A stretch of DNA of 56,382 nucleotides from a virus (lineage: Duplodnaviria > Caudoviricetes). Positions 241 to 40,943 of the stretch are shown in pieces. The DNA lies in IMG/VR virus record IMGVR_UViG_3300019926_000028, positions 1-56,382 of that record. One strand, written 5' to 3'. A model generated the notes under the pieces. The model saw only the letters and a list, made by a program, of their open reading frames with translations. It did no database searches and was not told the DNA's origin. The stretch's first letter is position 1, and each line of letters begins with the position of its first letter. Both the position numbers and the translations under genes were made by a program.

Positions 241-1138
241 TCAAGAACACCCTTGCCTTTTCTAAAAATTCTTCCGGATTAGAATCAATAAACTCACCTT
301 CCAATACTCTATGATGTGAAGGGCAAAGAGAAATTAAATTATCAAGTGAATTCATTTCCTCGTGTTCTTGTTCTACATCCCACTCGTTATTGGGCTTGAT
401 ATGATGAACGTGCGGTTTTCTACCTATTTCTTCTTCGGTAATACCACAAACTCTACATTTGAATCCGTCTCTCTCCCACGCTTTTTCTCTTTGAGAAAAC
501 CACGATGGACCGTAGTAACTTTCATAGCCACCTTCCCAACTAGGATGTTCTTTTCCACCCAAAGGCCAGTCTTTACTATAACCCACCTCAAATCCACTTT
601 CAGACAACGCATCAAACCAAGAACCGAACCTCTGACGATAAGTCCCGCCTGAGAACCTTCCATATTCCCTTATATCTCCCAGAGTTGGTGGATTTTCATT
701 ACAATATTCCTCTGAAACACGATTAATATCTTCAGATAATTTTGGAAGGGGAGTATTCATCGGGATTGTTGGTTCAAAACCGGAAGCAATCAAAGCATCA
801 TTCCAACTTCCAAATTTCTGGACTACAGTATTTGCGGAATGGGATGAATACTCATGGAATTTTTTATACGTAGGTGCATCTCCACCGCAATATTCTTCTG
901 AAATAGATTTAATGGAAGATATAAACTCTTCCTCGTTCAATCCATATTCTACATTTGTTTCCAATTGAGCTTCTTTGATGGCTTCGTTCCAACTTCCAAA
1001 TTTAGTCGCTGGCATTGAAGAAGCCATACTACCATATTCACGAAAATCTTCATTCGTCGGTGTGTCCCCATCACAAAATTCTTCAGATACTCTCCGTATT
1101 TCTCTGATTACCTCTTCTTCGGTATATTTTGGGGACAT
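233..1138 (-). CDS. HNH endonuclease with three homing-endonuclease-associated (FGSW) repeats
   Basis: Three KFGSWNEA/RFGSWFDAL repeats; C-terminal RDGFKCRVCG...HVHHI...NLISLCPSHH. Confidence 0.85.
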   Translation of the reverse strand: MSPKYTEEEVIREIRRVSEEFCDGDTPTNEDFREYGSMASSMPATKFGSWNEAIKEAQLETNVEYGLNEEEFISSIKSISEEYCGGDAPTYKKFHEYSSHSANTVVQKFGSWNDALIASGFEPTIPMNTPLPKLSEDINRVSEEYCNENPPTLGDIREYGRFSGGTYRQRFGSWFDALSESGFEVGYSKDWPLGGKEHPSWEGGYESYYGPSWFSQREKAWERDGFKCRVCGITEEEIGRKPHVHHIKPNNEWDVEQEHEEMNSLDNLISLCPSHHRVLEGEFIDSNPEEFLEKARVFLNE

Positions 1139-1148
1139 AGTAGATTAT

Positions 1149-1592
1149 CTACTGCCGTCCAGACTCGTGAACATCAAGAGAAACGATGTGGTCGTAATCC
1201 ACAACGTGCTTCTCTTCGTCCTTATCAATAAGATACTCATCTTTATCGATTTTAATATTCATTTCTTCAAGATGAGAGTCAATCCGCTGTGCAATTTCCA
1301 TTATTTCCCTGTTATCGAGGGGTCGAATCTTCGCCCCATCCATATCCCCACATTTACAAGCCGAGCGTTTTACATTCGGACGGCCCGAATTTTCTCTATC
1401 GTCAACCCAATAATGGTCAACGTGGGGTTCATGTTCAACGAGCGCAGAGACAGAATCCGGCATCGTATGATGTGGTTTGCTGTAACTCTTCAATTTACGA
1501 TAACAGTTTTTGCAAATGGTTGCGTTATCTTCTATCTTTTGGGAAAACGTGGAATCTTCATCAAGTTCTTCTTCTAATTTTAGTTCAGACAT
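1149..1592 (-). CDS. Hypothetical protein with CxxC and CxC motifs
   Basis: Acidic ORF in operon context; ATG at 1592 preferred; CKNC and CKC motifs. Confidence 0.6.
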   Translation of the reverse strand: MSELKLEEELDEDSTFSQKIEDNATICKNCYRKLKSYSKPHHTMPDSVSALVEHEPHVDHYWVDDRENSGRPNVKRSACKCGDMDGAKIRPLDNREIMEIAQRIDSHLEEMNIKIDKDEYLIDKDEEKHVVDYDHIVSLDVHESGRQ

Positions 1593-1748
1593 AAATGCTA
1601 TACTCAACCCTATATCTTTTTCATATGTCTGCTTTACGTCACAGAAATCATCCGTATGATGGCGTCGGTCTGTGTCTCACGGAGACTCGTGCAAAGTTTT
1701 AGGGTTTTGACCTATCTTTTGTTCTTGTTAACTAGTACACGCCGGTTA

Positions 1749-1763
1749 TACTTAAGTCTTTCG
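1749..1763 (-). promoter_or_regulatory. Archaeal BRE/TATA promoter
   Basis: Minus strand reads CGAAAGACTTAAGTA. The same CGAAA-N3-TATA layout occurs on the plus strand at about 8086, 12001, 15712, 23041, 33515 and 36678. Confidence 0.55.
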
Positions 1764-1802
1764 TTTGAAAGTTAATTTGGTATAAGGACACACGAAAACA
1801 AT

Positions 1803-3171
1803 CTAATAATCAAACAAACTTTGTTTAACAGTCTTATCTTCTGCGTTATTTATATCCAAGTAGTCTTTTGCTAATTCTTCAAACTCTTCGTGGTTTCGTC
1901 CTTTGAATTTGCCTTCAAGTGGTTTATGGCAAGCTTTACACAGAGAGATGAGATTGCGTAAATTATTCATTTTTTCATGCTCATCCTCTACGATCCAATA
2001 ATCAGCGGGAACTATATGATGTACATCGGGTTTCAAATTGTATTTTTGTTTAGTGTTAACTCCGCAAATTCTACAATTATTTCCATCTCTTTCCCTCACC
2101 TTCTTTTTTCTGCTCCACCATGAAGAACCATAGTATTTAACACCACCACCATTTTCTTTCCATAAATGATGCTCTTCACCTTTTGGTGCTTCCCATCCCT
2201 GTTTTATTTTTTCATTTGGTTCAAATCCCGCTTTCTCAACAGCTTTATTCCAACTTCCAAATTCATTCCTTACCCAATTTCTACTATATTTTGCATTTCT
2301 ATGATATGTTTTTTTGGTCCGGTGTTTCGTTTTTGTCGCAATAACATCTGTATATTCCCTTAATATCCTTAATTAATTGTTCTTTACCGGGATTATCTCT
2401 TCTAACAAGAGGTTCATATCCAATTTTTAATAGTGCTTTGTTAATAGTACCAAACTTTCTCGCATAAACAGTCCTGCTAAATTTAGATTCTGATATTATA
2501 TCGTGTGTTGAATTGTCAATTCCAATCCTATAAACTGCCTTCTTTAGTTCATCTAACGCTTTCTCTTTAGGAACTTCAACACCTTTTCTACTATTTTTTA
2601 AAGAAAATTTACTTTTTTGTATGATTTCTCCCCAAGAATCAAATTTATTTTGATAAGAGGTAAGTGAATATTTTGAATGCAAATTTATATCTTTTTGTGT
2701 TGGAATTTTATTTAATTTTTCTCCAACTCTTTCAAACTCAGAAATATACTCATCAATCGTTCTTGAATTATACGCCTCTGAATATTCTTTATGCCGGTAT
2801 TCTTCAAAACCACATTCCGATAAAGCATCCCACCAAGAATTTAAATGAGTTCTAAGAGTTGGAAATGAAAAATTTCCATATTCTTGGTATTGTGAGTATG
2901 ATGGCCGTCCTCTTACTTCTTCTGAAACTCTTTTGATGTCTTCTATTATCTTTTCACTAGAGATTGGATTTCCCCGTCCAACAGCATTTTTACTAAATCC
3001 AGCAACTTTTAACGCTTCGTTCCAAGAACCAAATCTATTTGAAAAAGTCGCATAAGAAATATCACCATATTTTTTCATATCTTTAACAGTTGGAGAACCC
3101 CCATCACAATACTCTTCTGATACTCTCTCTAATTCATTAACCAAGTCATCTTCGGAGTATTTAGTTGGCAT
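1803..3171 (-). pseudogene. HNH endonuclease with FGSW repeats, split by a 1-nt frameshift
   Basis: ORFs 2299-3171 and 1803-2099 join if one base is removed from the T7 run at 2309-2315. The joined protein reads PDQKTYHRNAKYSRNWVRNEFGSWNKAVEKAGFEP...YYGSSWWSRKKKVRERDG into the HNH domain. Confidence 0.8.
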
Positions 3172-3182
3172 ATCCCTGTCCT

Positions 3183-4349
3183 TCAGAGTTGCCCGCCATT
3201 AATTCGGATAGGTTCAACATCTTCCATGACTTTATCTTCAGAGGTAAACCAGAAAATACCACAAGAGCCGCCAGAAGATCCTTGAGATTCAGCGAAAGTT
3301 GAAGGCGGGGAAGGAGAACCAGTCATAACAACAGGAATTTCATCTCCAATACGCTCAATTAAGGTTTTGTGATAGTGGGAACGGAGAAGAATATCAAAAC
3401 CATACGCCATATAATCATCTTTCACTCGATTTTCTCCACTACTCGTTCCGACATGATTCAAATACCGTTCACCATGACGGGAAAGATAATCCCACCCACG
3501 AACCGAGAACTGAACAATACCAGCAGGACCGGCCTTGTTGATATTCACATTTTCCGCATCCGAGTAATGAAGAGCAGTTTCAACGAAATCAAACAACATC
3601 ATATCGAAATTCGTTGTACTCTCTTTATCGAGACGACCGTGATTACCCGGAACACATTGAACATCTACGTATTCAAACTGATCAGAGAGTTTCAAAATTT
3701 GCTCTATATACGTATTTCCTGCTTTCCGAAGCTGGTCACGGACATTATCTTCCTGTTCGTGTCGCTGTGATGCAAAGATGCCCTCTCCATCAACGTGATC
3801 GCCGTTCAAAACAAATACAACATCCTCAACATCACCACGACGTTCGGCATGAGCAATTCCTTTGTCTACATACTCCCGGATTGCCTTCCTAGCCTCTTCT
3901 GCACCGTAGTAATCCACGTCATATCGGTCTTGAACCACAGAGCCGACGTGTGCATCAGAATGAGGAAGGACGAGTGTAGAGCCGGAGTCAGACCGGGTAT
4001 AATCAGCCTTAACAGGGTCGGTATTATTGAGTGCTTCTTTAACCTCCTTTTCCATTTCCGTTAAAGCGTTATGAGTGTCCTTAGTAACCTGCGCTCTGTC
4101 ATAAGAATTGATTCGTTTTGGAGTTTCATTTCGCTCTTGACTTTCTCCACCGATATGCCATACATCATCACTATTCATATAAAATTCATATCCATGATCA
4201 TCTTCAAGAGCTTGCATCCGGTATCTTACTGCTCTCCGTGAAATATCAAGCTCATCAGCAATATTCTTCCGTGTATTTGGTAGCTTCTCCAAAACTGCTT
4301 GCTGCTTAGGAGTTATACTGTTCATAGTTTTAGAATTAATTTCACTCAT
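3183..4349 (-). CDS. HTH-fused calcineurin-like metallophosphoesterase
   Basis: N-terminal HTH (IADELDISRRAVRYRM); motifs SDAHVG, NGDHVDG, VPGNHG, RHG, SHYH. Confidence 0.8.
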   Translation of the reverse strand: MSEINSKTMNSITPKQQAVLEKLPNTRKNIADELDISRRAVRYRMQALEDDHGYEFYMNSDDVWHIGGESQERNETPKRINSYDRAQVTKDTHNALTEMEKEVKEALNNTDPVKADYTRSDSGSTLVLPHSDAHVGSVVQDRYDVDYYGAEEARKAIREYVDKGIAHAERRGDVEDVVFVLNGDHVDGEGIFASQRHEQEDNVRDQLRKAGNTYIEQILKLSDQFEYVDVQCVPGNHGRLDKESTTNFDMMLFDFVETALHYSDAENVNINKAGPAGIVQFSVRGWDYLSRHGERYLNHVGTSSGENRVKDDYMAYGFDILLRSHYHKTLIERIGDEIPVVMTGSPSPPSTFAESQGSSGGSCGIFWFTSEDKVMEDVEPIRINGGQL

Positions 4350-4716
4350 TAAAATTCTCCTCGCTTATTTTTCTACTATAGAAAAACTCCGGGTGTCCAA
4401 TCTCATAAGATGGACTATATTCCCCGGTTCTACTAATTATTTCGTAACCCATCTTAGGATGAGCATAATAAGTCACATCACCATTCTCATAAGCTAATAC
4501 ATCACTCCAATTTAATTCTTCCCACCCACCAAGATTGTTTTTATCATCGTTGGGTTCACTCACAATAACTTCTAATGCTGTACGGTCATCTTTAAAAGAT
4601 ATTTCAATATCTCCTTCTTTTGAATGAATTATTTGCCCGTCATATCCTTCAGGAACTTCTAATGTTCTGAACAATTCTCTTGGTTCATCAACATAATAAA
4701 TCTCTTGCTCACTCAT
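4342..4716 (-). CDS. Hypothetical protein
   Basis: Acidic ORF with starts and stops overlapping its neighbours; ATG at 4716. Confidence 0.6.
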   Translation of the reverse strand: MSEQEIYYVDEPRELFRTLEVPEGYDGQIIHSKEGDIEISFKDDRTALEVIVSEPNDDKNNLGGWEELNWSDVLAYENGDVTYYAHPKMGYEIISRTGEYSPSYEIGHPEFFYSRKISEENFNE

Positions 4717-4870
4717 TTTCAATCAAATCTTGTAGACCGTTTCTCTCAATAATAAAGTCCATCTCTTCACGGAGTCGTTCTACTTTATTTTCTAGTTCAG
4801 AAATGCGTTCTGCTTCAACCCCGGTCTGAAAATTGTCAATTTCGGATTCACCTTCTTCAGATTCTGTCAT
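4709..4870 (-). CDS. Small acidic coiled-coil protein (53 aa)
   Basis: Not in the ORF track: MTESEEGESEIDNFQTGVEAERISELENKVERLREEMDF... A GAAAGATATTTAAA promoter-like motif lies about 25 nt upstream, and the stop overlaps the next ATG. Confidence 0.55.
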   Translation of the reverse strand: MTESEEGESEIDNFQTGVEAERISELENKVERLREEMDFIIERNGLQDLIENE

Positions 4871-4923
4871 TATTCTTTAATACACGTTTAAGGTTTAAAT
4901 ATCTTTCCTTCTACTTCAACCTT

Positions 4924-5323
4924 TCTTCAACGCTACAGGCATTCATCTGAAACCGTGTTGGAACGCCTTCAACCCCTCAAAGGTTCATCTGAAACGACCT
5001 ATGGGATTCAAAGGGTGAACTTGAGGGCGAACCTTCAACCCCTCAAGGGTTCATCTGAAACGTTTGCTATCCTCCGGGGGTTTCATCCAGTCTCTCCCTT
5101 CAACCCCTCAAGGGTTCATCTGAAACTAAACGAATTGAAATTACGGTCTTATATTGCATGCCTTCAACCCCTCAAGGGTTCATCTGAAACTGACGTTTAC
5201 CGAGATACAGAAACAGCATTAGATCCTCCTTCAACCCCTCAAGGGTTCATCTGAAACTCTTGAAGAATTGAACCCACAGAATCCAAGTCAACACCTTCAA
5301 GCCCATAAGGGTTCGACGGAGTA
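4924..5323 (-). CRISPR. CRISPR array, 7 repeats (5 near-perfect, 2 degenerate terminal) and 6 spacers
   Basis: 30-bp repeat CCTTCAACCCCTCAAGGGTTCATCTGAAAC at 4966 (1 mismatch), 5032, 5097, 5161 and 5228, degenerate at 4924 and 5294. Spacers are 12, 36, 35, 34, 37 and 36 bp. The minus-strand repeat GTTTCAGATGAACCCTTGAGGGGTTGAAGG differs at 3 positions from the haloarchaeal I-B repeat GTTTCAGACGAACCCTTGTGGGGTTGAAGC, which suggests the orientation. Confidence 0.95.
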
Positions 5324-5738
5324 TGATTGTAATATTTCTTTTTCCGATTTGTGCGGTCTTGGTGTAGACCACTTAACTTTCGGCGGGGTGTTTCGTCTTA
5401 CCGTGAAGTGTTCGCTCCCACTTGGAATACGCCAAGCACCTTGCAGATTATAATTTCCGGAACCACATCGGTCAAATGACCTGTGTTCCAACTGTTGTTG
5501 GTCTGCTACTAACGCGAGGTGTGCGCTTTCAACGCCTCTTTTCTCCTATCCCAACGAAGACCGTGGGGTACGCCCCATGCATCCAAACAAGGCCGTTCTA
5601 TTGGGCTTAACGGAGGCGAAACTTACATCGGATAGCATCGATCCGATGAATCCGGTGAAGTGCCGGATATCGGAAAGTGACATATAGCCACTCCCGACTT
5701 CAACTCACCATATGGGAGGTTAGTTAATAACTCTTTCG
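5324..5738 (-). ncRNA. Candidate tracrRNA/omegaRNA-like scaffold
   Basis: GC-richer gap with no credible ORF and many hairpins (5421-5436, 5459-5489, 5564-5577, 5626-5648, 5650-5668). It also carries a partial anti-repeat at 5390-5412. Confidence 0.55.
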
Positions 5739-6935
5739 TTAATAACTGAACAGGCCACCCTCTTCAATATATTCATTAGCTTCATTCCGGATTTCAAACC
5801 CGTCGCTTTCAAAATCACTCCCACGAAATGCAATATTCATAGATGCATTCACATCAGCATGAACTTGATATCCACACTCACCGCATTCAAAATCAGTACC
5901 ATTTCGATTACTACTATGAACATAACCACAATTTCTACACGTCTTGCTCGTATTCCGAGGATCAACAACTTCAACCGGAATTCCTTTTGCTTTAGCTTTA
6001 TACATAATCATTTCTTGAGCAAGAGCATACGGCCAATCGTGAATCGCATTTGCTGCTGTCTTCCTATAGTTTGTTAGGTCCTCCAAAACAATTTTTGGAT
6101 TGTTATGCTGAGTAGCTTCCTTTACTATATTTTTGGATGCCGTATGGAGAACCTGTTCTGTATATTTCTCGTGTTGTCCACGGCATTCTTTAACACCTTT
6201 AACATCATTATTAGCCATCATTTCCGAACGTTTTTCTTTTAATCTTTCTCGGTGGTGTCTAAATTCAGAACCATCCTTCAATTCTACATTTTTAATTCCA
6301 TCATTAGAAAGAACAGAATATGTATAGATAACATTTTCTCCAAGATCAACACCAATTACTGTTTCAACCTCTTCATCTTCAATAACATCAACGTCCCATG
6401 TAACCACTAAATGTGCCTTTAATGTATCTCCATCTTTATGTATTTCACAAGTTCCAAATGACGCTCCTTCGTTAACTATCTTATCTAAATACCTCTTTGA
6501 AAATTTATTATCGTTGATATGGAACCACTCTGGTTTATACGGAACAATATTGAACTTAATTCCATACCCTTTGTTATTTTCTTCTACTGTAATTTGTTGG
6601 CTTTTTGCTCTAACATAATTTTGCTTCCCGAAAACTGGCTTATTGCCCACTTTACCATTACTTCTCCAAGATTTATAACCACTAACAACATCTCCAATTG
6701 CTTCTGAAGCAACTTGACCAGAAACATATCTATCATCCCCCCATTCTTCTACAACATTTCTATAAAATTGAGGATTCATTGTAGACCATTGATTTTCATC
6801 AAATGATAAAATTAAATCTGATACAAATTTACTCATCTCCTGATACTCATTTATACATTTTTGAATTTTGGTATTCTTCCTATTACTCGTTTCTAGGTCA
6901 AGTACAACAGTTTGAGCAACTGTTTCAGTTGGCAT
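5739..6935 (-). CDS. tnpB: TnpB/Cas12f-like RNA-guided RuvC nuclease (398 aa)
   Basis: RuvC-I IGVDLG, RuvC-II IVLEDL, VDPRNTSKTCRNCG...CGECG zinc finger and RuvC-III HADVNASMNIA. The D-E-D triad is intact. It has its own TATA box about 25 nt upstream, and no tnpA is nearby. Confidence 0.9.
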   Translation of the reverse strand: MPTETVAQTVVLDLETSNRKNTKIQKCINEYQEMSKFVSDLILSFDENQWSTMNPQFYRNVVEEWGDDRYVSGQVASEAIGDVVSGYKSWRSNGKVGNKPVFGKQNYVRAKSQQITVEENNKGYGIKFNIVPYKPEWFHINDNKFSKRYLDKIVNEGASFGTCEIHKDGDTLKAHLVVTWDVDVIEDEEVETVIGVDLGENVIYTYSVLSNDGIKNVELKDGSEFRHHRERLKEKRSEMMANNDVKGVKECRGQHEKYTEQVLHTASKNIVKEATQHNNPKIVLEDLTNYRKTAANAIHDWPYALAQEMIMYKAKAKGIPVEVVDPRNTSKTCRNCGYVHSSNRNGTDFECGECGYQVHADVNASMNIAFRGSDFESDGFEIRNEANEYIEEGGLFSY

Positions 6936-7028
6936 ATTTTTTCTTGTAGACTACTACTTATATATTCTTCGCTCTCTAAAACAATAGAGTTTTATGCTTC
7001 CCCCTCGTAGCGGTGCTGTGCGGTAACT

Positions 7029-7321
7029 GTTCTAGTTTATAGTTTATGTTGTTCTAGTTACTATATTCGTTACTTCCTTTACATGAAATATAAAAATACC
7101 TAGGTTATCTACTTCCTTTATATACTTAACCTAGGTATTACCGTTAATCTTTTAACTATACAACTAGTACTAGACTAGTATATGGTAACAGAACTAGCAG
7201 ATATAGATGGTCTAGGCCCAAAAACAGTAGAGTCTCTAGAAGGTAATGATATAACTAGCATAGAGGATCTAGCTAACTCTAGTATTGAAGAGATTACTGA
7301 ATGTGGTATTAGTAATTCTAG
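7029..7321. promoter_or_regulatory. CTAG-rich divergent control region with a 13-bp perfect inverted repeat
   Basis: 14 CTAG sites between 7032 and 7321. Inverted repeat AATACCTAGGTTA (7095-7107) / TAACCTAGGTATT (7127-7139). Direct repeats TACTTCCTTTA (7071, 7110) and GTTCTAGTT (7029, 7051). Confidence 0.6.
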
Positions 7322-17323: not shown

Positions 17324-17506
17324 ATGAAAGGCGATCACCGAATTGACGCAATCATTGAAGAAGAAGTACAGGAAGGAAGAGTTACACCAGCTTATATCGC
17401 GCACGTTGGCGATGTTTCAAAGTCGTATGTGAGTCAACGACTTTCGCTGATGGTTGAGCGAGATGAGATCGAAAAAGTATATCGCGGGCTTTACGAGTTG
17501 AAATAA
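17324..17506 (+). CDS. Small winged-helix DNA-binding protein
   Basis: TPAYIA...SKSYVSQRLSLMVERDEIEKVYRGLYEL wHTH pattern. Confidence 0.65.
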   Translation: MKGDHRIDAIIEEEVQEGRVTPAYIAHVGDVSKSYVSQRLSLMVERDEIEKVYRGLYELK

Positions 17507-18582
17507 TGAAATATACTGAACAAGAATTAATTGATGAGTTGCATAGAGTTTCTGAAGAGTATTGTGGTGGTGAGACGCCGACGCAGAAAGATATGAACAA
17601 ATATGGTAAATATTCAGCCGCAACATACGAACGTCGTTTTGAATCTTGGAATGATGTTTTGGAAGTTGTTGGGTTAAAAGTAAATGTTTATAAAGATTAC
17701 ACCGACGAAGACTTAAAACAAATATTAATAGATTTTAGTGAAAAATATTGCAACGGTGAGGCTCCAACTAGAGAGTTTTTTAACAAAAAAGCGGATATTC
17801 ATTATAGTACAATAGAAAATAGATTTGGGACTTGGAATAAAGCTTTGAAAATATGTGGAAAAAGCGTTAATGAAAGACATAAAATCCCCAAAGAAAAGTT
17901 GAGATATGAATTATTTAAAGTTAAAGATGTTGTAGGTGGAACACCGACAATTGGTGAAATGTGTGAATATGGAAATCTCTCTCATGGGCCTTATGTGACT
18001 GAATTTGGTTCATGGAATAAAGCACTTGAGTATCATGGAATGGAGTATAATCATAAAAATAATTTAAGTAAAGAGTATATAAAAAATGAAATAAAGAAAG
18101 TTTCGGAAAATCATTGTGGTGGCAAGGCTCCGAAAAGAGAAGATATGCGAGAATATTCTGAAATTTGTCAAATGACCGCAACTAATAAATTTGGCTCTTG
18201 GGATGTAGCGTTGGAGCAATGTGGGATAGAATCATTAAAAGCAACCGATTATCTTCCAAGTGGAAAAGAACATTTCAATTGGTGTGGGGGTATATCAATA
18301 AATTATGGCCCTTCGTGGAATAGACAAAGAAATAAAGCAATGAAAAGAGATGGTCATTGTTGTAGACTGTGCGAAAGGCCAGTTCAAGAAACTTTAATTG
18401 ATGTTCATCATATAACACCAGTTCGCTTTTGGAGAGTAGAGCAGGAACACGAGAAAATGAACCAACTAAATAATTTAATATCTTTATGCCGATCTTGTCA
18501 TAGGAAATATGAGGGACAATTGAAGGGGAGGGGGCATGATGAATTTGAATATGTTATTGATAGTGAAGCGATAGAGTTATAA
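17506..18582 (+). CDS. HNH endonuclease with four FGSW repeats
   Basis: RFESWN, RFGTWN, EFGSWN and KFGSWD repeats; RDGHCCRLC...DVHHI...NLISLCRSCH. Confidence 0.85.
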   Translation: MKYTEQELIDELHRVSEEYCGGETPTQKDMNKYGKYSAATYERRFESWNDVLEVVGLKVNVYKDYTDEDLKQILIDFSEKYCNGEAPTREFFNKKADIHYSTIENRFGTWNKALKICGKSVNERHKIPKEKLRYELFKVKDVVGGTPTIGEMCEYGNLSHGPYVTEFGSWNKALEYHGMEYNHKNNLSKEYIKNEIKKVSENHCGGKAPKREDMREYSEICQMTATNKFGSWDVALEQCGIESLKATDYLPSGKEHFNWCGGISINYGPSWNRQRNKAMKRDGHCCRLCERPVQETLIDVHHITPVRFWRVEQEHEKMNQLNNLISLCRSCHRKYEGQLKGRGHDEFEYVIDSEAIEL

Positions 18583-36677: not shown

Positions 36678-36719
36678 CGAAACGTTTTTATACTTCGGTC
36701 TGTTATGACAACCTGTATC

Positions 36720-38786
36720 ATGGCAGACCAGTCAACCCGCAAGTCGCTTGACGCTATCAATCAGGAGTACCGAAACAGCATCCCCGAAGATATCCGAGAA
36801 TCGTATTCCTTTGAATGGTATCTTGACGAGGTTTACAATTCGCCACTCATCACCCGAAACGCACATCAGCGAGTTGCTGATATGTTTGAATATTTCGGGA
36901 CTGAATACGACGAAGACACGGGTATTGTCGAATACAAACTAGCCAGCGAAGACCCGCTTCATGATGGTGATAACGTCTTCTTTGGACGTGAAGTTCATGA
37001 AGCAATTCACGAGTTTGTGAATAAGGTTTATTCGGGTGCGCGTGGCCTTGGCCCGGAAAAGCGAATTAAACTTCTTCTTGGGCCGGTTGGGTCTGGCAAG
37101 TCTCACTTTGATTCGCGGCTTCGAAAGTATTTTGAAGAGTATACTCAGCGGGAAGAAGGACGGATGTACACTTTCCGGTGGACGAATCTTTGTGATGTGA
37201 TTGAAGATCAAGACCCATCTGATGATACTGTTCGTTCAGCGATGAATCAAGACCCGATTGTTCTTCTTCCCGAAGATCAACGGCGGGAGATTTTTGATTC
37301 ACTTAATCAGTCTGTTGATGCTGATTATAGGTTGGATAATAAGCAGTCTCTCGATCCACGAAGCGAATTCTTCATGGATGAACTGCTTGATTATTACGAT
37401 GATGATCTTCTCGCTGTTTTAGAGAATCACGTTGAAGTTATCCGTCTCATCGCAAATGAAAACCGCCGTCGTTGTGTTGAAACGTTTGAACCGAAGGATA
37501 AGAAAAATCAGGATGAAACGGAACTGACGGGGGATATTAATTACAGTAAGATTGCCGTGTATGGCGAATCTGACCCTCGTTCGTTTGAATATTCGGGAGC
37601 ATTCTGTAATGCCAATCGTGGTATTTTCTCCGGTGAAGAGTTGCTAAAGCTACAGAAGGAATTCCTGTATGATTTCCTTCACGCTACACAGGAGAAAACC
37701 ATCAAGCCACGAAATAATCCACGAATGGATATTGATCAAGTGATTGTCGGTCGAACGAATATGCCTGAGTATACTGAAAAGAAGGGGGATGAGAAGATGG
37801 AAGCATTCAACGACCGGACGAAGCGGATTGATTATCCATACGTGCTTGAGTATTCCGAAGAGGCTAATATATATGAAAAGATGCTTAATAATGCCTCTGT
37901 TCCGGAGGTTCATGTCGAACCGCACACGCTTGAAATGGCTGGTTTGTTCAGCGTAATGACGCGGGTTGATGAACCCGATACAGATAATATTGATCTGCTT
38001 CAGAAGGTGAAGGCGTATAATGGCGAAGATGGTGATATTGGTGATATTGATGTTCACAAGCTTCGTGAAGAATCCGAAGAGGAAGGGATGTATGGTGTCT
38101 CTGCCCGTTTTGTTGGCGACGAGATTTCCGAGGCTATTGTTACCCGGCTTCATGATGATAACAATTCACTATCCTCTCTTGCTGTTCTACGACACCTAGA
38201 ACAGAACCTAGAGAGTCACGGTTCGATTCCCGAAGACAACTACGACGATTACTATACCTACATCGAAGAAGTTCAGGAAGAATACAAAGACCGTGCTATT
38301 GAAGATGTTCGATACGCTCTCGCTTACAATACTGATGAAATCCAGCGAGAGGGGGAGAAGTACATGGATAACGTTGTGGCGTATATTGATGATGATAAGA
38401 TTGAAGATGATATCACGGGTGAAATGGTTGAACCTGATGAGCAATTCATGCGGTCTGTGGAGGAAGAGCTAGATATCCCCCGTGATCGGAAAGATGATTT
38501 CCGACAAGAAATCTCCAATTGGGTTACTCGTCGCGCCCGAAGTGGTGAAGACTTTGATCCGACCGACAATGACCGTCTTCTCCGCGCTCTTGAACGAAAG
38601 AATTGGAGCGATAAGAAGCATAATATTAACTTTTCTGCTTTGATTCAAAGTGATAGTGATGGTGATTCAGAGGAACGAAGCGATTGGATCGAAGCACTCA
38701 AAGAGCGTGGATACTCCGAAGAAGGCGCTCGGGAAGTTCTTGAATTCGCTGGTGCAGAGGTTGCTAAGGAGGAAATTGACGGATAA
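36720..38786 (+). CDS. prkA: PrkA/YeaG-family AAA+ ATPase / serine kinase 1
   Basis: RNAHQR, LLGPVGSGKS, DETELTGD, ANRG, EELLK, EAFNDR, PYVL, APHT-like EPHTLE. Confidence 0.9.
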   Translation: MADQSTRKSLDAINQEYRNSIPEDIRESYSFEWYLDEVYNSPLITRNAHQRVADMFEYFGTEYDEDTGIVEYKLASEDPLHDGDNVFFGREVHEAIHEFVNKVYSGARGLGPEKRIKLLLGPVGSGKSHFDSRLRKYFEEYTQREEGRMYTFRWTNLCDVIEDQDPSDDTVRSAMNQDPIVLLPEDQRREIFDSLNQSVDADYRLDNKQSLDPRSEFFMDELLDYYDDDLLAVLENHVEVIRLIANENRRRCVETFEPKDKKNQDETELTGDINYSKIAVYGESDPRSFEYSGAFCNANRGIFSGEELLKLQKEFLYDFLHATQEKTIKPRNNPRMDIDQVIVGRTNMPEYTEKKGDEKMEAFNDRTKRIDYPYVLEYSEEANIYEKMLNNASVPEVHVEPHTLEMAGLFSVMTRVDEPDTDNIDLLQKVKAYNGEDGDIGDIDVHKLREESEEEGMYGVSARFVGDEISEAIVTRLHDDNNSLSSLAVLRHLEQNLESHGSIPEDNYDDYYTYIEEVQEEYKDRAIEDVRYALAYNTDEIQREGEKYMDNVVAYIDDDKIEDDITGEMVEPDEQFMRSVEEELDIPRDRKDDFRQEISNWVTRRARSGEDFDPTDNDRLLRALERKNWSDKKHNINFSALIQSDSDGDSEERSDWIEALKERGYSEEGAREVLEFAGAEVAKEEIDG

Positions 38787-38789
38787 GGC

Positions 38790-40943
38790 ATGACTAATCC
38801 AATCCAAAAGGCCGAAGAAGAATACTCCCAGAGGGAGAGTGAAGAATACTCTCTTGAAGAGTTTCTTGAGTACGCTAAAGAAAATCCAAACACGGTTTCC
38901 AATTCGGTGCAGTATCTCGTGAATGCGATTGAGCATTTCGGAACGAGAACTGTTATCGAATATGGTGAAGAGAAGGAACGCTACCGTTTCTTCGATGACC
39001 CCGTGAACGATGGTGAACACGCCGTTCTTGGAAACACAGAAGAGTTAAACAAATTCGTTGATTCGCTGAAGCGAAAAGCATCTTCGGATGGTGAAAACGA
39101 TAAGATAATCTGGTTCACGGGGCCAACAGCGACGGGCAAATCAGAGCTAAAGCGTTGTCTATTGAATGGACTGCAAGCGTATGCGAATACGGAAGAAGGA
39201 CGTAGATATACGCTCAAGTGGAGTCTCGATTCATTATCAACATCGGGAATGACGTATGGTGATGAATTTAGAGGTGAAAGGGATTGGTATAAGAGTCCTG
39301 TCCATGTCAATCCGCTCGCCGTTTTGCCAGATTCAGTTAGAGAGGAATATCTTGAAGAATTAAACGAGGATAGTGAATCATACGTCCGTTTCGATGGAAG
39401 ACTTGACCCGTTTAGTCGGGTTGCATACGATCATCTCCAAGATGAATATGATTCATTTTCCGATATCGTTTCAGATGATCATTTAAAAGTTGTTTCTTAT
39501 ATTCCCGATATTGGAGAAGGATTTGGGTTGCTTCAATCAGAGGATGGTGGTGATCCAAAGCAGAGGATTGTTGGTTCTTGGATGCAAGAATCGATGCAGG
39601 AATATGCAGAGCGAGGTAGAAAGAACGCACAAGCGTTTACATACGATGGAGTGCTTTCACAAGGTAATTCATTGGTTTCTGTTGTGGAAGACGCACAGCA
39701 CCATTCTGAGGTGTTTACAAAACTAATGAATGTGTGCGAAGAAGATATAGTCAAGCTGGATAACAAGATTGCGATGCATATTGATTCTGTTATAATTTGC
39801 ATCTCCAATCCGGATTTTGAAGCGGCTTTAAACGAATTTGAAGACGCCGGTTCAAAAGACCCACAGAAGGCACTCCGCCGAAGACTTGAAAAATATCAAT
39901 TTAGATACCTCACAAGCTTGGTGCTTGAAACCCAACTTCTCATTAAACACCTTACAAAAAGGAATGTCTTTTGGGAGAATGAAGACGTTGAAGAGTTGGT
40001 AGAGCGCGTTTCTACACCGATTGAGAAGTATGGAACGCACTTCAGCCCCCATGCAATTGAAGCGGCTGCATACTTTAATGTATTAACTCGTATTGAACCC
40101 GGAGATATTGGGAAAAATAATAAGATTCAATACTACGATAAAGGATATAATATTGTAGATGATGAGAAAGTTGAATATGATGAAAAGATGGTGCTTTCAG
40201 AGGCGGATGGGAGAGAAGGTCTTCCTGTAACCTATACTGAAGATATACTTTCTCAACTTGCTCAAGAATTTGAAGGTCCGGTCATGCCACACGACGTAAT
40301 TGAAGCAATGAAAGAAGGTCTTCAGGGTTCGCCTATATTCTCCGATGATGAGAGAACTGACTATAAAATGGAAAAGGGGAACGTTAAAGCATATATCTCA
40401 GACGAGATGAGGAAAGACGTTCTTGAAGCTATTATTGCTGGTGATGATGTAACTAAAGATGAAATTGATTCTTATGTTGATTCTATTATTGCATGGGATG
40501 AAAATGATGAAGAAAACTACGACGCATATGAACTTCGGGAGTTTGAGAAGAAATATTTCAACTCTGCTTCCGGAGAATATGGAGAAAATGCTGAACCTTC
40601 GAATTTGATTGAATCTTTCCGAGAAGATAAAATCATTCAACCACTCAACAGGTACTACTATGAAAATTCGGATGACGGATACGATCCGGAGAACATTCCG
40701 ATAGAGGAAAGTCATGTCTTAAAAACGCTTCTTGAAGATGAGTCGTGGAAGCGTGTTGAACAGCTATATCCGAATCTTGATTATGCTCTATGGGAGAACC
40801 CACCGGAAAACTCCGAAACCGAAGAGGTTAAAAATAAGGCGATAGAAAATATGAAGGAAATGGGGTACACTGATGAATCAGCAAAACTAGCGTCAACACG
40901 GATTATTAGAGCGAGAAAGGAGGTGGCTAATAATGGGACTTAG
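38790..40943 (+). CDS. prkA: PrkA/YeaG-family ATPase 2
   Basis: RYRFFDDP, GPTATGKS, YDGVLSQGN, ISNP, ALRRRL, SPHAIE. Confidence 0.85.
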   Translation: MTNPIQKAEEEYSQRESEEYSLEEFLEYAKENPNTVSNSVQYLVNAIEHFGTRTVIEYGEEKERYRFFDDPVNDGEHAVLGNTEELNKFVDSLKRKASSDGENDKIIWFTGPTATGKSELKRCLLNGLQAYANTEEGRRYTLKWSLDSLSTSGMTYGDEFRGERDWYKSPVHVNPLAVLPDSVREEYLEELNEDSESYVRFDGRLDPFSRVAYDHLQDEYDSFSDIVSDDHLKVVSYIPDIGEGFGLLQSEDGGDPKQRIVGSWMQESMQEYAERGRKNAQAFTYDGVLSQGNSLVSVVEDAQHHSEVFTKLMNVCEEDIVKLDNKIAMHIDSVIICISNPDFEAALNEFEDAGSKDPQKALRRRLEKYQFRYLTSLVLETQLLIKHLTKRNVFWENEDVEELVERVSTPIEKYGTHFSPHAIEAAAYFNVLTRIEPGDIGKNNKIQYYDKGYNIVDDEKVEYDEKMVLSEADGREGLPVTYTEDILSQLAQEFEGPVMPHDVIEAMKEGLQGSPIFSDDERTDYKMEKGNVKAYISDEMRKDVLEAIIAGDDVTKDEIDSYVDSIIAWDENDEENYDAYELREFEKKYFNSASGEYGENAEPSNLIESFREDKIIQPLNRYYYENSDDGYDPENIPIEESHVLKTLLEDESWKRVEQLYPNLDYALWENPPENSETEEVKNKAIENMKEMGYTDESAKLASTRIIRARKEVANNGT

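Follow-up and report, generated by a model that had tools for sequence, protein, structure and literature searches.

A tracrRNA-like scaffold RNA as the probable guide component of a type V-F-like CRISPR system carried by haloviruses

The guide RNAs of TnpB and of all Cas12 nucleases are described as sharing a pseudoknot placed directly before the guide, which in Cas12f is formed by repeat:anti-repeat 1 (PMC10097598). The TranC proteins, according to a preprint that describes them, are TnpB-sized nucleases associated with CRISPR, in which the omega RNA is split into a trans-activating CRISPR RNA (tracrRNA) and a CRISPR RNA (crRNA); one member, of 414 aa, lies in a phage genome (10.64898/2026.03.27.714800). 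Since TnpB-sized CRISPR nucleases with split guides are thus described for both Cas12f and TranC, the kind of system reported here is already known. For archaea, a 2020 review places type V only in DPANN lineages (PMC7694759), and our literature search, whose scope did not extend to supplementary clade lists (PMC10691335 and the TranC work), returned no type V system described for Halobacteria or their viruses. Herein, we analyse a 56-kb virus record from IMG/VR, IMGVR_UViG_3300019926_000028 (56,382 nucleotides at its full length, referred to below as the window; estimated completeness about one half). Its minus strand carries, in this order, a nuclease gene, a GC-rich gap of 415 nt, and a degenerate repeat followed by a mini CRISPR array. 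We propose, with a probability of about 0.8, that the RNA encoded in the gap derives from an omega RNA and serves the neighbouring Cas12f-like nuclease (398 aa) as a trans-acting tracrRNA-like guide scaffold, and that it belongs to a type V-F-like system carried by haloviruses.

With Cas12f (V-U3-like Cas12f1, such as AsCas12f of 422 aa) the haloviral system shares a compact effector with RuvC and zinc-finger TNB domains, whose predicted fold is closest to that group, and a non-coding scaffold gene beside a CRISPR array, a loop of which would pair with the last repeat bases 5' of the guide (PMC10097598). It differs from Cas12f in that its scaffold is about 370–400 nt long, that no second repeat:anti-repeat duplex was found and the contact supported by covariation is the pseudoknot alone, that it uses palindromic repeats of class 1 kinds (I-B-like with 30 nt, or 37 nt long), that its hosts are Halobacteria and their viruses, and that no cas1, cas2 or cas4 lies nearby. 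IS200/IS605 TnpB is alike in protein size and domain set and in having a long structured RNA with a pseudoknot before the guide (PMC10097598), whereas the haloviral RNA is a separate gene, often on the other strand, the guide comes from an array, and the pseudoknot would join two RNAs. Because the scaffold is a separate, single-copy gene followed by an array, it does not fall under the definition of an omega RNA. TranC, for which no accessory cas genes are reported nearby, differs in the repeats reported for its clades (32–38 bp, of unknown subtype; 10.64898/2026.03.27.714800), as opposed to the recognisable class 1 kinds seen here. Finally, the virus-borne mini-arrays described for Saccharolobus portogloboviruses are likewise short viral arrays with host class 1-like repeats and no adaptation genes, but the haloviral system brings its own nuclease and a repeat-matched scaffold RNA (PMC11656645).

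The elements on which the argument rests are the following.

5739..6935, minus strand: gene (P0001) of a Cas12f/TnpB-like RNA-guided nuclease, 398 aa (open reading frame, profile matches, AlphaFold2 model)
5723..5730, minus strand: TATA-like box UUAUUAAC, about 26–33 nt upstream of helix 1 and just past the nuclease stop codon (5741–5739), located by eye in the alignment
5329..5701, minus strand: core of the putative scaffold (tracr-like) RNA, 11 helices and a purine-rich tail (homology and covariation)
5650..5668, minus strand: helix 2 hairpin AUCCGG-CACUUCA-CCGGAU, loop 5662–5656, in which CUUCA (5660–5656) is the candidate anti-repeat strand to UGAAG, repeat positions 25–29 (covariation)
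5615..5622, minus strand: 5' strand of long-range helix 4; GUUUCG (5622–5617) pairs with CGAAAC (5395–5390) (covariation)
5404..5412, minus strand: conserved segment AACACUUCA, unpaired in the consensus fold
5390..5397, minus strand: 3' strand of long-range helix 4, including GAAAC (internal pairing)
5335..5346, minus strand: nearly invariant purine-rich motif CGGAAAAAGAAA on the 3' side of the scaffold (conserved columns 516–527 of alignment A2)

Altogether, 65 loci around relatives of the nuclease were fetched from metagenomes, genomes and viral contigs (locus handles below begin with L, genome handles with G). Homologues of window positions 5741–5294 adjoin the nuclease gene in 38 of them (blastn, then two nhmmer rounds); judging from the locus tables, the 27 loci with no scaffold match are mostly distant TnpBs, fragments, or contigs cut on the relevant side. 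Alignment A2 comprises the 24 distinct scaffold copies, and its RNAalifold consensus has 66 pairs in 11 helices, 53 of which show compensatory changes on both sides. Standard pairs fill 94.8% of the cells, as against 34–43% when the partners are slid by 1–3 columns. None of 500 column shuffles reaches the observed pairing values, a statistic that overstates independence because the sequences are related. In long-range helix 4, six of the seven pairs covary and 99.4% of the cells are paired. In the window, the fold spans from 5697 (helix 1) to about 5344 and is followed by CGGAAAAAGAAA. A cmscan of window positions 4500–7200 (E-value up to 1) gave no Rfam match in the gap, its only hits being CRISPR-DR24 on the repeats and one chance snoRNA match inside the nuclease gene. 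Comparative sequence evidence thus indicates that the gap encodes a conserved, covarying structured RNA of predicted length about 370–400 nt, of a family absent from Rfam. A Cas12f tracrRNA has roughly half this length.

The direction in which this RNA is read follows from three pairs that are G–U in 23–24 of the 24 sequences: on the other strand they would be A–C, and the RNA is therefore read on the minus strand, as are the nuclease gene and the canonical repeat direction. Folding energy of the single sequence is modestly unusual and equally so on both strands (z of −2.7 for the minus and −3.3 for the plus strand). Being modest and not discriminating between strands, it would not have settled the hairpin from the window alone. 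In the window, the scaffold starts about 40 nt past the nuclease stop codon, behind the TATA-like box, and AT-rich TATA-like words stand at the same A2 columns (approximately 30–38, by eye) in most of the 24 homologues, whatever the arrangement of genes. From what is generally known of archaeal promoters, this box suggests a promoter of the scaffold's own.

The original prediction, drawn from the window alone, was that the gap encodes a guide-RNA scaffold, that a hairpin at 5668–5650 presents the loop CUUCA to the repeat end UGAAG, and that a covariance model from homologous loci would be one way to judge this. In this part it fares well. The homologous loci yielded the 53 covarying pairs out of 66, and a covariance model of the 5' domain was built. 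The hairpin sequence is exact, and its stem keeps pairing through two-sided changes in four of five pairs across the 24 homologous RNAs. The scaffold assignment itself is supported by conservation, covariation and exclusive co-occurrence with the nuclease family.

The pairing of the loop with the repeat end is 5/5 in the window, where UGAAG stands just 5' of each spacer, and the loop covaries with the repeat end across loci. With loops listed for 38 loci, 72 of 75 core cells facing the last repeat bases are Watson–Crick, over 15 distinct loop/repeat classes and two repeat families; none of 20000 re-pairings of loops with repeats reaches this value, a statistic that likewise overstates independence. 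The matched variants are CUUCA:UGAAG (window), UUCCA:UGGAA (L067), UUUCA:UGAAA (L019), CUUCG:CGAAG (L010, L052) and CUCCA:UGGAG, and one G–U pair each is found in L013 (CUUCG with CGGAG) and L051 (CUUCA with UGGAG). With loops of 8 nt, the final base of the repeat is paired as well, making six pairs (GCUUCA:UGAAGC, CCUUCA:UGAAGG, GUUUCA:UGAAAC), and in the loci with the 37-nt repeat, which ends in AUUGAAAC, the loops read GUUUCA. On the nuclease tree the variants lie in scattered positions, and the three loci of one well-supported clade have three different matched pairs. Two loci found later, outside the sample, fit as well: G017 (L076) combines the loop CUCCA with a downstream GGGACUGGAG, and G216 (L089) combines GUUUCA with a 37-nt repeat ending in UGAAAC. 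Overall, pairing of the scaffold loop with the last repeat bases, as a putative pseudoknot of the repeat:anti-repeat 1 type, is strongly supported by this comparison. In the window, the loop could also pair with UUGAAG, an internal word that stands next to helix 1 on its 5' side, but relatives do not conserve this word and we set it aside.

The nuclease has the features of a type V-F effector, being small and single, with a split RuvC (D-E-D) and a zinc-finger TNB domain. Its catalytic residues are intact (RuvC D197, E285 and D361), it has a CxxC...CxxC zinc finger (C333, C336, C351 and C354), and both the RuvC triad and the four cysteines are invariant or nearly so across 35 family members. 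It matches Pfam PF07282 at 79 bits and passes the NCBIfam model NF040570 guided_TnpB (144 bits, cut-off 100), while NCBIfam Cas12f2, at 122 bits, is far under its cut-off of 450; full-length PADLOC matches to Cas12f CAS-V-F (167 bits) and Cas12u3 (166 bits) come from models that have no curated cut-off. For the AlphaFold2 model (predicted local distance difference test score, pLDDT, 87.3), the best Foldseek matches are the structures of AsCas12f, OsCas12f, SpCas12f1 and CnCas12f1, with template modelling (TM) scores of 0.66–0.73 at a sequence identity to solved Cas12f proteins of 14–19%; TnpB structures (TM 0.49–0.56) and LaTranC (TM 0.52) match less well. The predicted fold is thus closest to Cas12f, nearer than to TnpB. 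About 77 relatives, of 35–87% identity, all come from hypersaline metagenomes or Halobacteria, and none is annotated as Cas by the source databases. A scan of viral contigs with the single protein gave no relatives, and an alignment-based scan gave four.

In a survey of 151 Halobacteria genomes, the covariance model of the scaffold 5' domain (R1) hits four, and the nuclease-family profile exceeds 560 bits in those same four, each time adjoining the RNA hit, the next best TnpBs reaching at most 175 bits. The family is single-copy (one copy above 500 bits) in each of these carriers. Of the 151 genomes, 72 have the repeat core, and just three of those 72 have the scaffold RNA. The RNA therefore tracks the nuclease family, not I-B-type arrays, and the scaffold is not an array leader. 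In a second sample of 151 genomes (the family of G001), R1 hits three. The nuclease gene may lie upstream on the same strand (the clade of the window), upstream and divergent (most loci) or downstream and convergent (L019), while the order of scaffold and then array, and their strand, stay constant. Among the carriers of the system, which has no adaptation genes of its own, are viruses, proviruses and probably a small circular element. They include the window virus as well as three other viral contigs and, in Haloarcula amylolytica JCM 13557, a predicted provirus (L069, equal to L055). Cas1 and Cas6 were not found anywhere in three of five carrier genomes (G002, G004, G017) and lie far from the nuclease in the other two; a search of the window likewise gave no Cas6. 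In a separate observation, two copies on a Halonotius pteroides contig of 15141 bases (L056, L057) are 100% identical over 6.8 kb, a unit of about 7.4 kb occurring twice at high stated coverage, which suggests a small circular element with nuclease, scaffold and 37-nt-repeat array.

The array of the window is composed as follows.

4924..5293, minus strand: mini CRISPR array (repeat search and Rfam)
5257–5228, 5190–5161, 5126–5097, 5061–5032 and 4995–4966, minus strand: five 30-nt repeats
5293–5258, minus strand: spacer S0
Between and after these repeats, minus strand: spacers S1–S4 of 34–37 nt, then a 12-nt truncated spacer and a degenerate terminal repeat at 4953–4924

On the minus strand the repeat reads GUUUCAGAUGAACCCUUGAGGGGUUGAAGG, in four exact copies and one with a single mismatch, with degenerate copies at 5323–5294 and 4953–4924. 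It matches Rfam CRISPR-DR24 on that strand (44.2 bits, threshold 35) and is haloarchaeal type I-B-like. The repeats are palindromic, and this one has a small hairpin of its own, AACCC...GGGUU, abutting the pseudoknot strand. The second repeat family, of 37 nt, reaches 28 bits against Rfam CRISPR-DR60, under the threshold of 45; several loci first taken as array-less and transposon-like carry such arrays. In 22 of 23 distinct loci whose flank reaches 200 nt or more, an array begins about 50–160 nt past the scaffold. In G084 (C1:1474449–1475517), the 17 repeats on the nuclease side are a variant ending in UCGGAGG that is confined to that array within the genome, and about 117 other I-B-like repeats lie together with cas1 and cas6 genes some 155–160 kb away.

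The competing explanation that survives best, which we nevertheless consider unlikely, accepts the scaffold and holds that the effector mainly loads crRNAs made by the class 1 system of the host, the 8-nt 5' handle left by Cas6 holding the loop partner, and that new spacers come through host Cas1–Cas2 in trans, so that the system would be a parasite of host CRISPR. The repeats do come from two class 1-like families with the loop re-tuned to each, and the pseudoknot partner does lie within the last 8 nt of the repeat, which is the handle left by haloarchaeal Cas6b; moreover, viral and proviral loci have arrays of at least 20 repeats with no adaptation genes nearby, and the CAUG junction between leader and repeat is conserved. 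However, G002, G004 and G017 carry the system without Cas1 or Cas6, the nuclease-linked repeat of G084 differs by more than three bases from every other repeat of that host, and the array of the window has lost its leader.

Less probable still is that the gap holds an omega RNA with one fixed guide, belonging to a mobile TnpB element of the IS200/IS605 type that insertion happened to place next to an array. The guided_TnpB model is indeed passed (144 bits against 100), relatives bear names such as 'IS605 OrfB transposase' or 'InsQ/TnpB', the RNA of the window stands just 3' of the gene as omega RNAs do, and G017 has a single repeat-like end and no array. Yet the scaffold forms a unit of its own, which in most loci runs divergently or convergently to the gene; each of the four survey carriers has a single copy of the family (transposon ends and tnpA were not looked for); and an array follows in 22 of 23 loci, the pseudoknot partner recurring before every spacer and covarying with the loop. 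The least probable explanation of all makes the gap the leader of a host-type I-B mini-array exploiting the type I-B machinery of the host, with the TnpB-like gene as an unrelated insertion sequence, and although the repeat is of the haloarchaeal I-B kind (CRISPR-DR24, core in 72/151 Halobacteria genomes), the gap sits at the leader position, relatives mostly have a 60–110-nt leader-like stretch with the conserved CAUG junction, and viral mini-arrays with host repeats that use a host effector are described (PMC11656645), the RNA is present in just 3 of the 72 genomes that have repeats of this type, adjoins the nuclease every time (4/4), accompanies arrays of a different 37-nt repeat as well, has 53 covarying pairs that leaders do not need and a loop that follows the repeat end, and occurs in carriers without Cas1 or Cas6 (G002, G004, G017).

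Several observations weigh against the tracrRNA-like scaffold that we prefer, in addition to the relatedness of the aligned sequences mentioned above. The intermolecular pairing that is supported amounts to only 5–6 bp, and L021 and the Natrinema hispanicum CDM_6 locus L050 have an A–C mismatch at the first pseudoknot position (A opposite C25); in their repeat, A11G occurs together with U25C, preserving the repeat's own stem instead. The second repeat:anti-repeat duplex that defines Cas12f was not found: a duplex scan gave no other site conserved in alignment position, with recurring complementarity to the repeat only at the helix 2 loop and at the 5' arm of a 3' hairpin that follows the scaffold, and pseudoknot extensions into the helix 2 stem were not conserved. 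Although the repeat's GGGGUUGAA and the 5' arm of this hairpin are complementary, they do not covary. G017 has nuclease and scaffold with a single repeat-like end in place of an array, and in L058 the nuclease gene is truncated and the scaffold was not found. Lastly, no protospacer, protospacer adjacent motif or target was found for the window spacers in the phage collection, the viral contigs or the rest of the window: 24-mers of S1, S3 and S4 have no exact match among the viral contigs, and no spacer matches elsewhere in the window at up to seven mismatches.

The absence of the second duplex also bears on the remaining part of the original prediction, which had placed a second anti-repeat at 5412–5390. 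The minus strand there reads AACACUUCACGGUAAGACGAAAC as it stated, and the pairings that it listed exist in the window (AACACUUCA with UGAGGGGUU at 8/9, counting one G–U; GAAAC with GUUUC at 5/5). Across the relatives, they are not supported. GAAAC (5394–5390) pairs with the first five repeat bases in 66 of 85 cells, as against 85 of 85 with the internal GUUUC (5622–5618). For AACACUUCA and repeat positions 17–25 the count is 110 of 153 cells, and two invariant A's remain unchanged where the repeat has C at 24/25, with no compensation.

In the mechanism that we envisage for the tracrRNA-like scaffold, it would be transcribed from its own TATA-like promoter and would bind the nuclease. Its loop would then pair with the repeat end of the pre-crRNA or crRNA, forming a pseudoknot before the guide, and the repeat's own hairpin could supply the adjoining stem in cis, in place of the second duplex of Cas12f; such a stem would explain why no long repeat:anti-repeat duplex was found. 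The spacer 3' of the repeat would guide RuvC cleavage of matching DNA. In the window virus, the system most likely serves conflict with competing mobile elements.

It is tempting to go further and to suppose, quite tentatively, that a Cas12f-like lineage of haloarchaeal viruses, proviruses and small replicons repeatedly took over host class 1 arrays (repeat and leader, at least two repeat families), each time re-tuning the 5–6-nt loop of a scaffold of about 400 nt. Such a lineage could gain spacers through host Cas1–Cas2 in trans and might load crRNAs matured by Cas6. If this were true, Halobacteria would have their first class 2 CRISPR system, one whose effector has crRNA biogenesis in common with class 1 systems. 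Confirmation of the scaffold and its nuclease would in itself bring Halobacteria and their viruses within the range of class 2 (type V) CRISPR, and would add a case of a virus with a full interference module. The loci also form a natural series, with a single short loop within a large scaffold RNA re-matched to different repeats, showing how a TnpB-derived nuclease can adopt foreign arrays; this re-matching bears on the debated step from a transposon omega RNA to tracrRNA and crRNA. The nuclease, of 398 aa, ranks with the smallest effectors associated with CRISPR, and its guide requirements are therefore of practical interest.

The boundary between scaffold and array in the window has a further element, recognised from the alignment of relatives.

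5294..5323, minus strand: pseudo-repeat, composed of CCGUCGA (5' arm of the 3' hairpin conserved in the family) and the 3' two-thirds of a repeat, with UGAAG kept

Past the scaffold, most relatives have a conserved 3' hairpin (CCGUCGACC, a variable loop, GGUCGACGG), then the 60–110-nt leader-like stretch with CAUG, and then the first true repeat. The array of the window is without this leader-like stretch, and what the original prediction had taken as its first repeat looks like a fusion remnant of 3' hairpin and repeat. Since the pseudo-repeat keeps UGAAG, a transcript running through scaffold, pseudo-repeat and S0 could act as a single guide. In the closest relatives of the window (L007:1722–1830 and L020:1931–1991), truncated 3' parts of the repeat, with CCUUGUGGGGUUGAAGG repeated, occupy the interval from scaffold to array, which suggests recombination between 3' hairpin and repeat in the viral clade of the window. 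The variable loop of the 3' hairpin (e.g. L053, L033, L056 and L009; A2 columns approximately 601–665) often contains the TATA-like words AUAUAAAG, GUAUAAAU and UUUAUAA, and these may be the promoter of the array. In G017 (L076; C2:64400–65260), the single repeat-like end, a hairpin with GGGACUGGAG, lies about 130 nt past the 3' hairpin and matches the loop CUCCA; this locus may be a single-guide form. L058 (712–3954, Halegenticoccus tardaugens) has a family member without its first approximately 60 codons, which adjoins the final copy in a row of 35 I-B-type repeats, and a scaffold RNA could not be detected there. Its nuclease looks like a remnant cut off by the array, and about 1.2 kb downstream there is a second, short array whose repeat is a different variant.

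As for the rest of the window, the gap stands out by its G+C content of 46–53% against 29–40% in the flanking genes, and a blastn search of positions 4900–7000 against the phage collection gave no match. Beyond the array, there are two minus-strand genes: 3183–4349, encoding a helix-turn-helix and weakly metallophosphatase-like protein, and 4342–4722, an open reading frame of 126 aa with no Pfam match. The virus has its own replication genes, comprising a family B DNA polymerase, a clamp loader, a helicase, a RadA-like recombinase, a methyltransferase and several HNH endonucleases. Large haloarchaeal tailed viruses typically have a replication module like that of the plus-strand stretch 7182–43961 (RadA/Rad51-like ATPase, DNA methyltransferase, family B polymerase, clamp loader, helicase), and this stretch also contains two paralogous large proteins of unassigned function, 36705–38786 and 38790–40943, both phrog_22605. 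Three genes are of the HNH or 'homing endonuclease associated repeat' kind (233–1138, 2299–3171 and 17506–18582), and the direct DNA repeats D2/D3 within 794–3040 correspond to the repeated protein domain of the first two.

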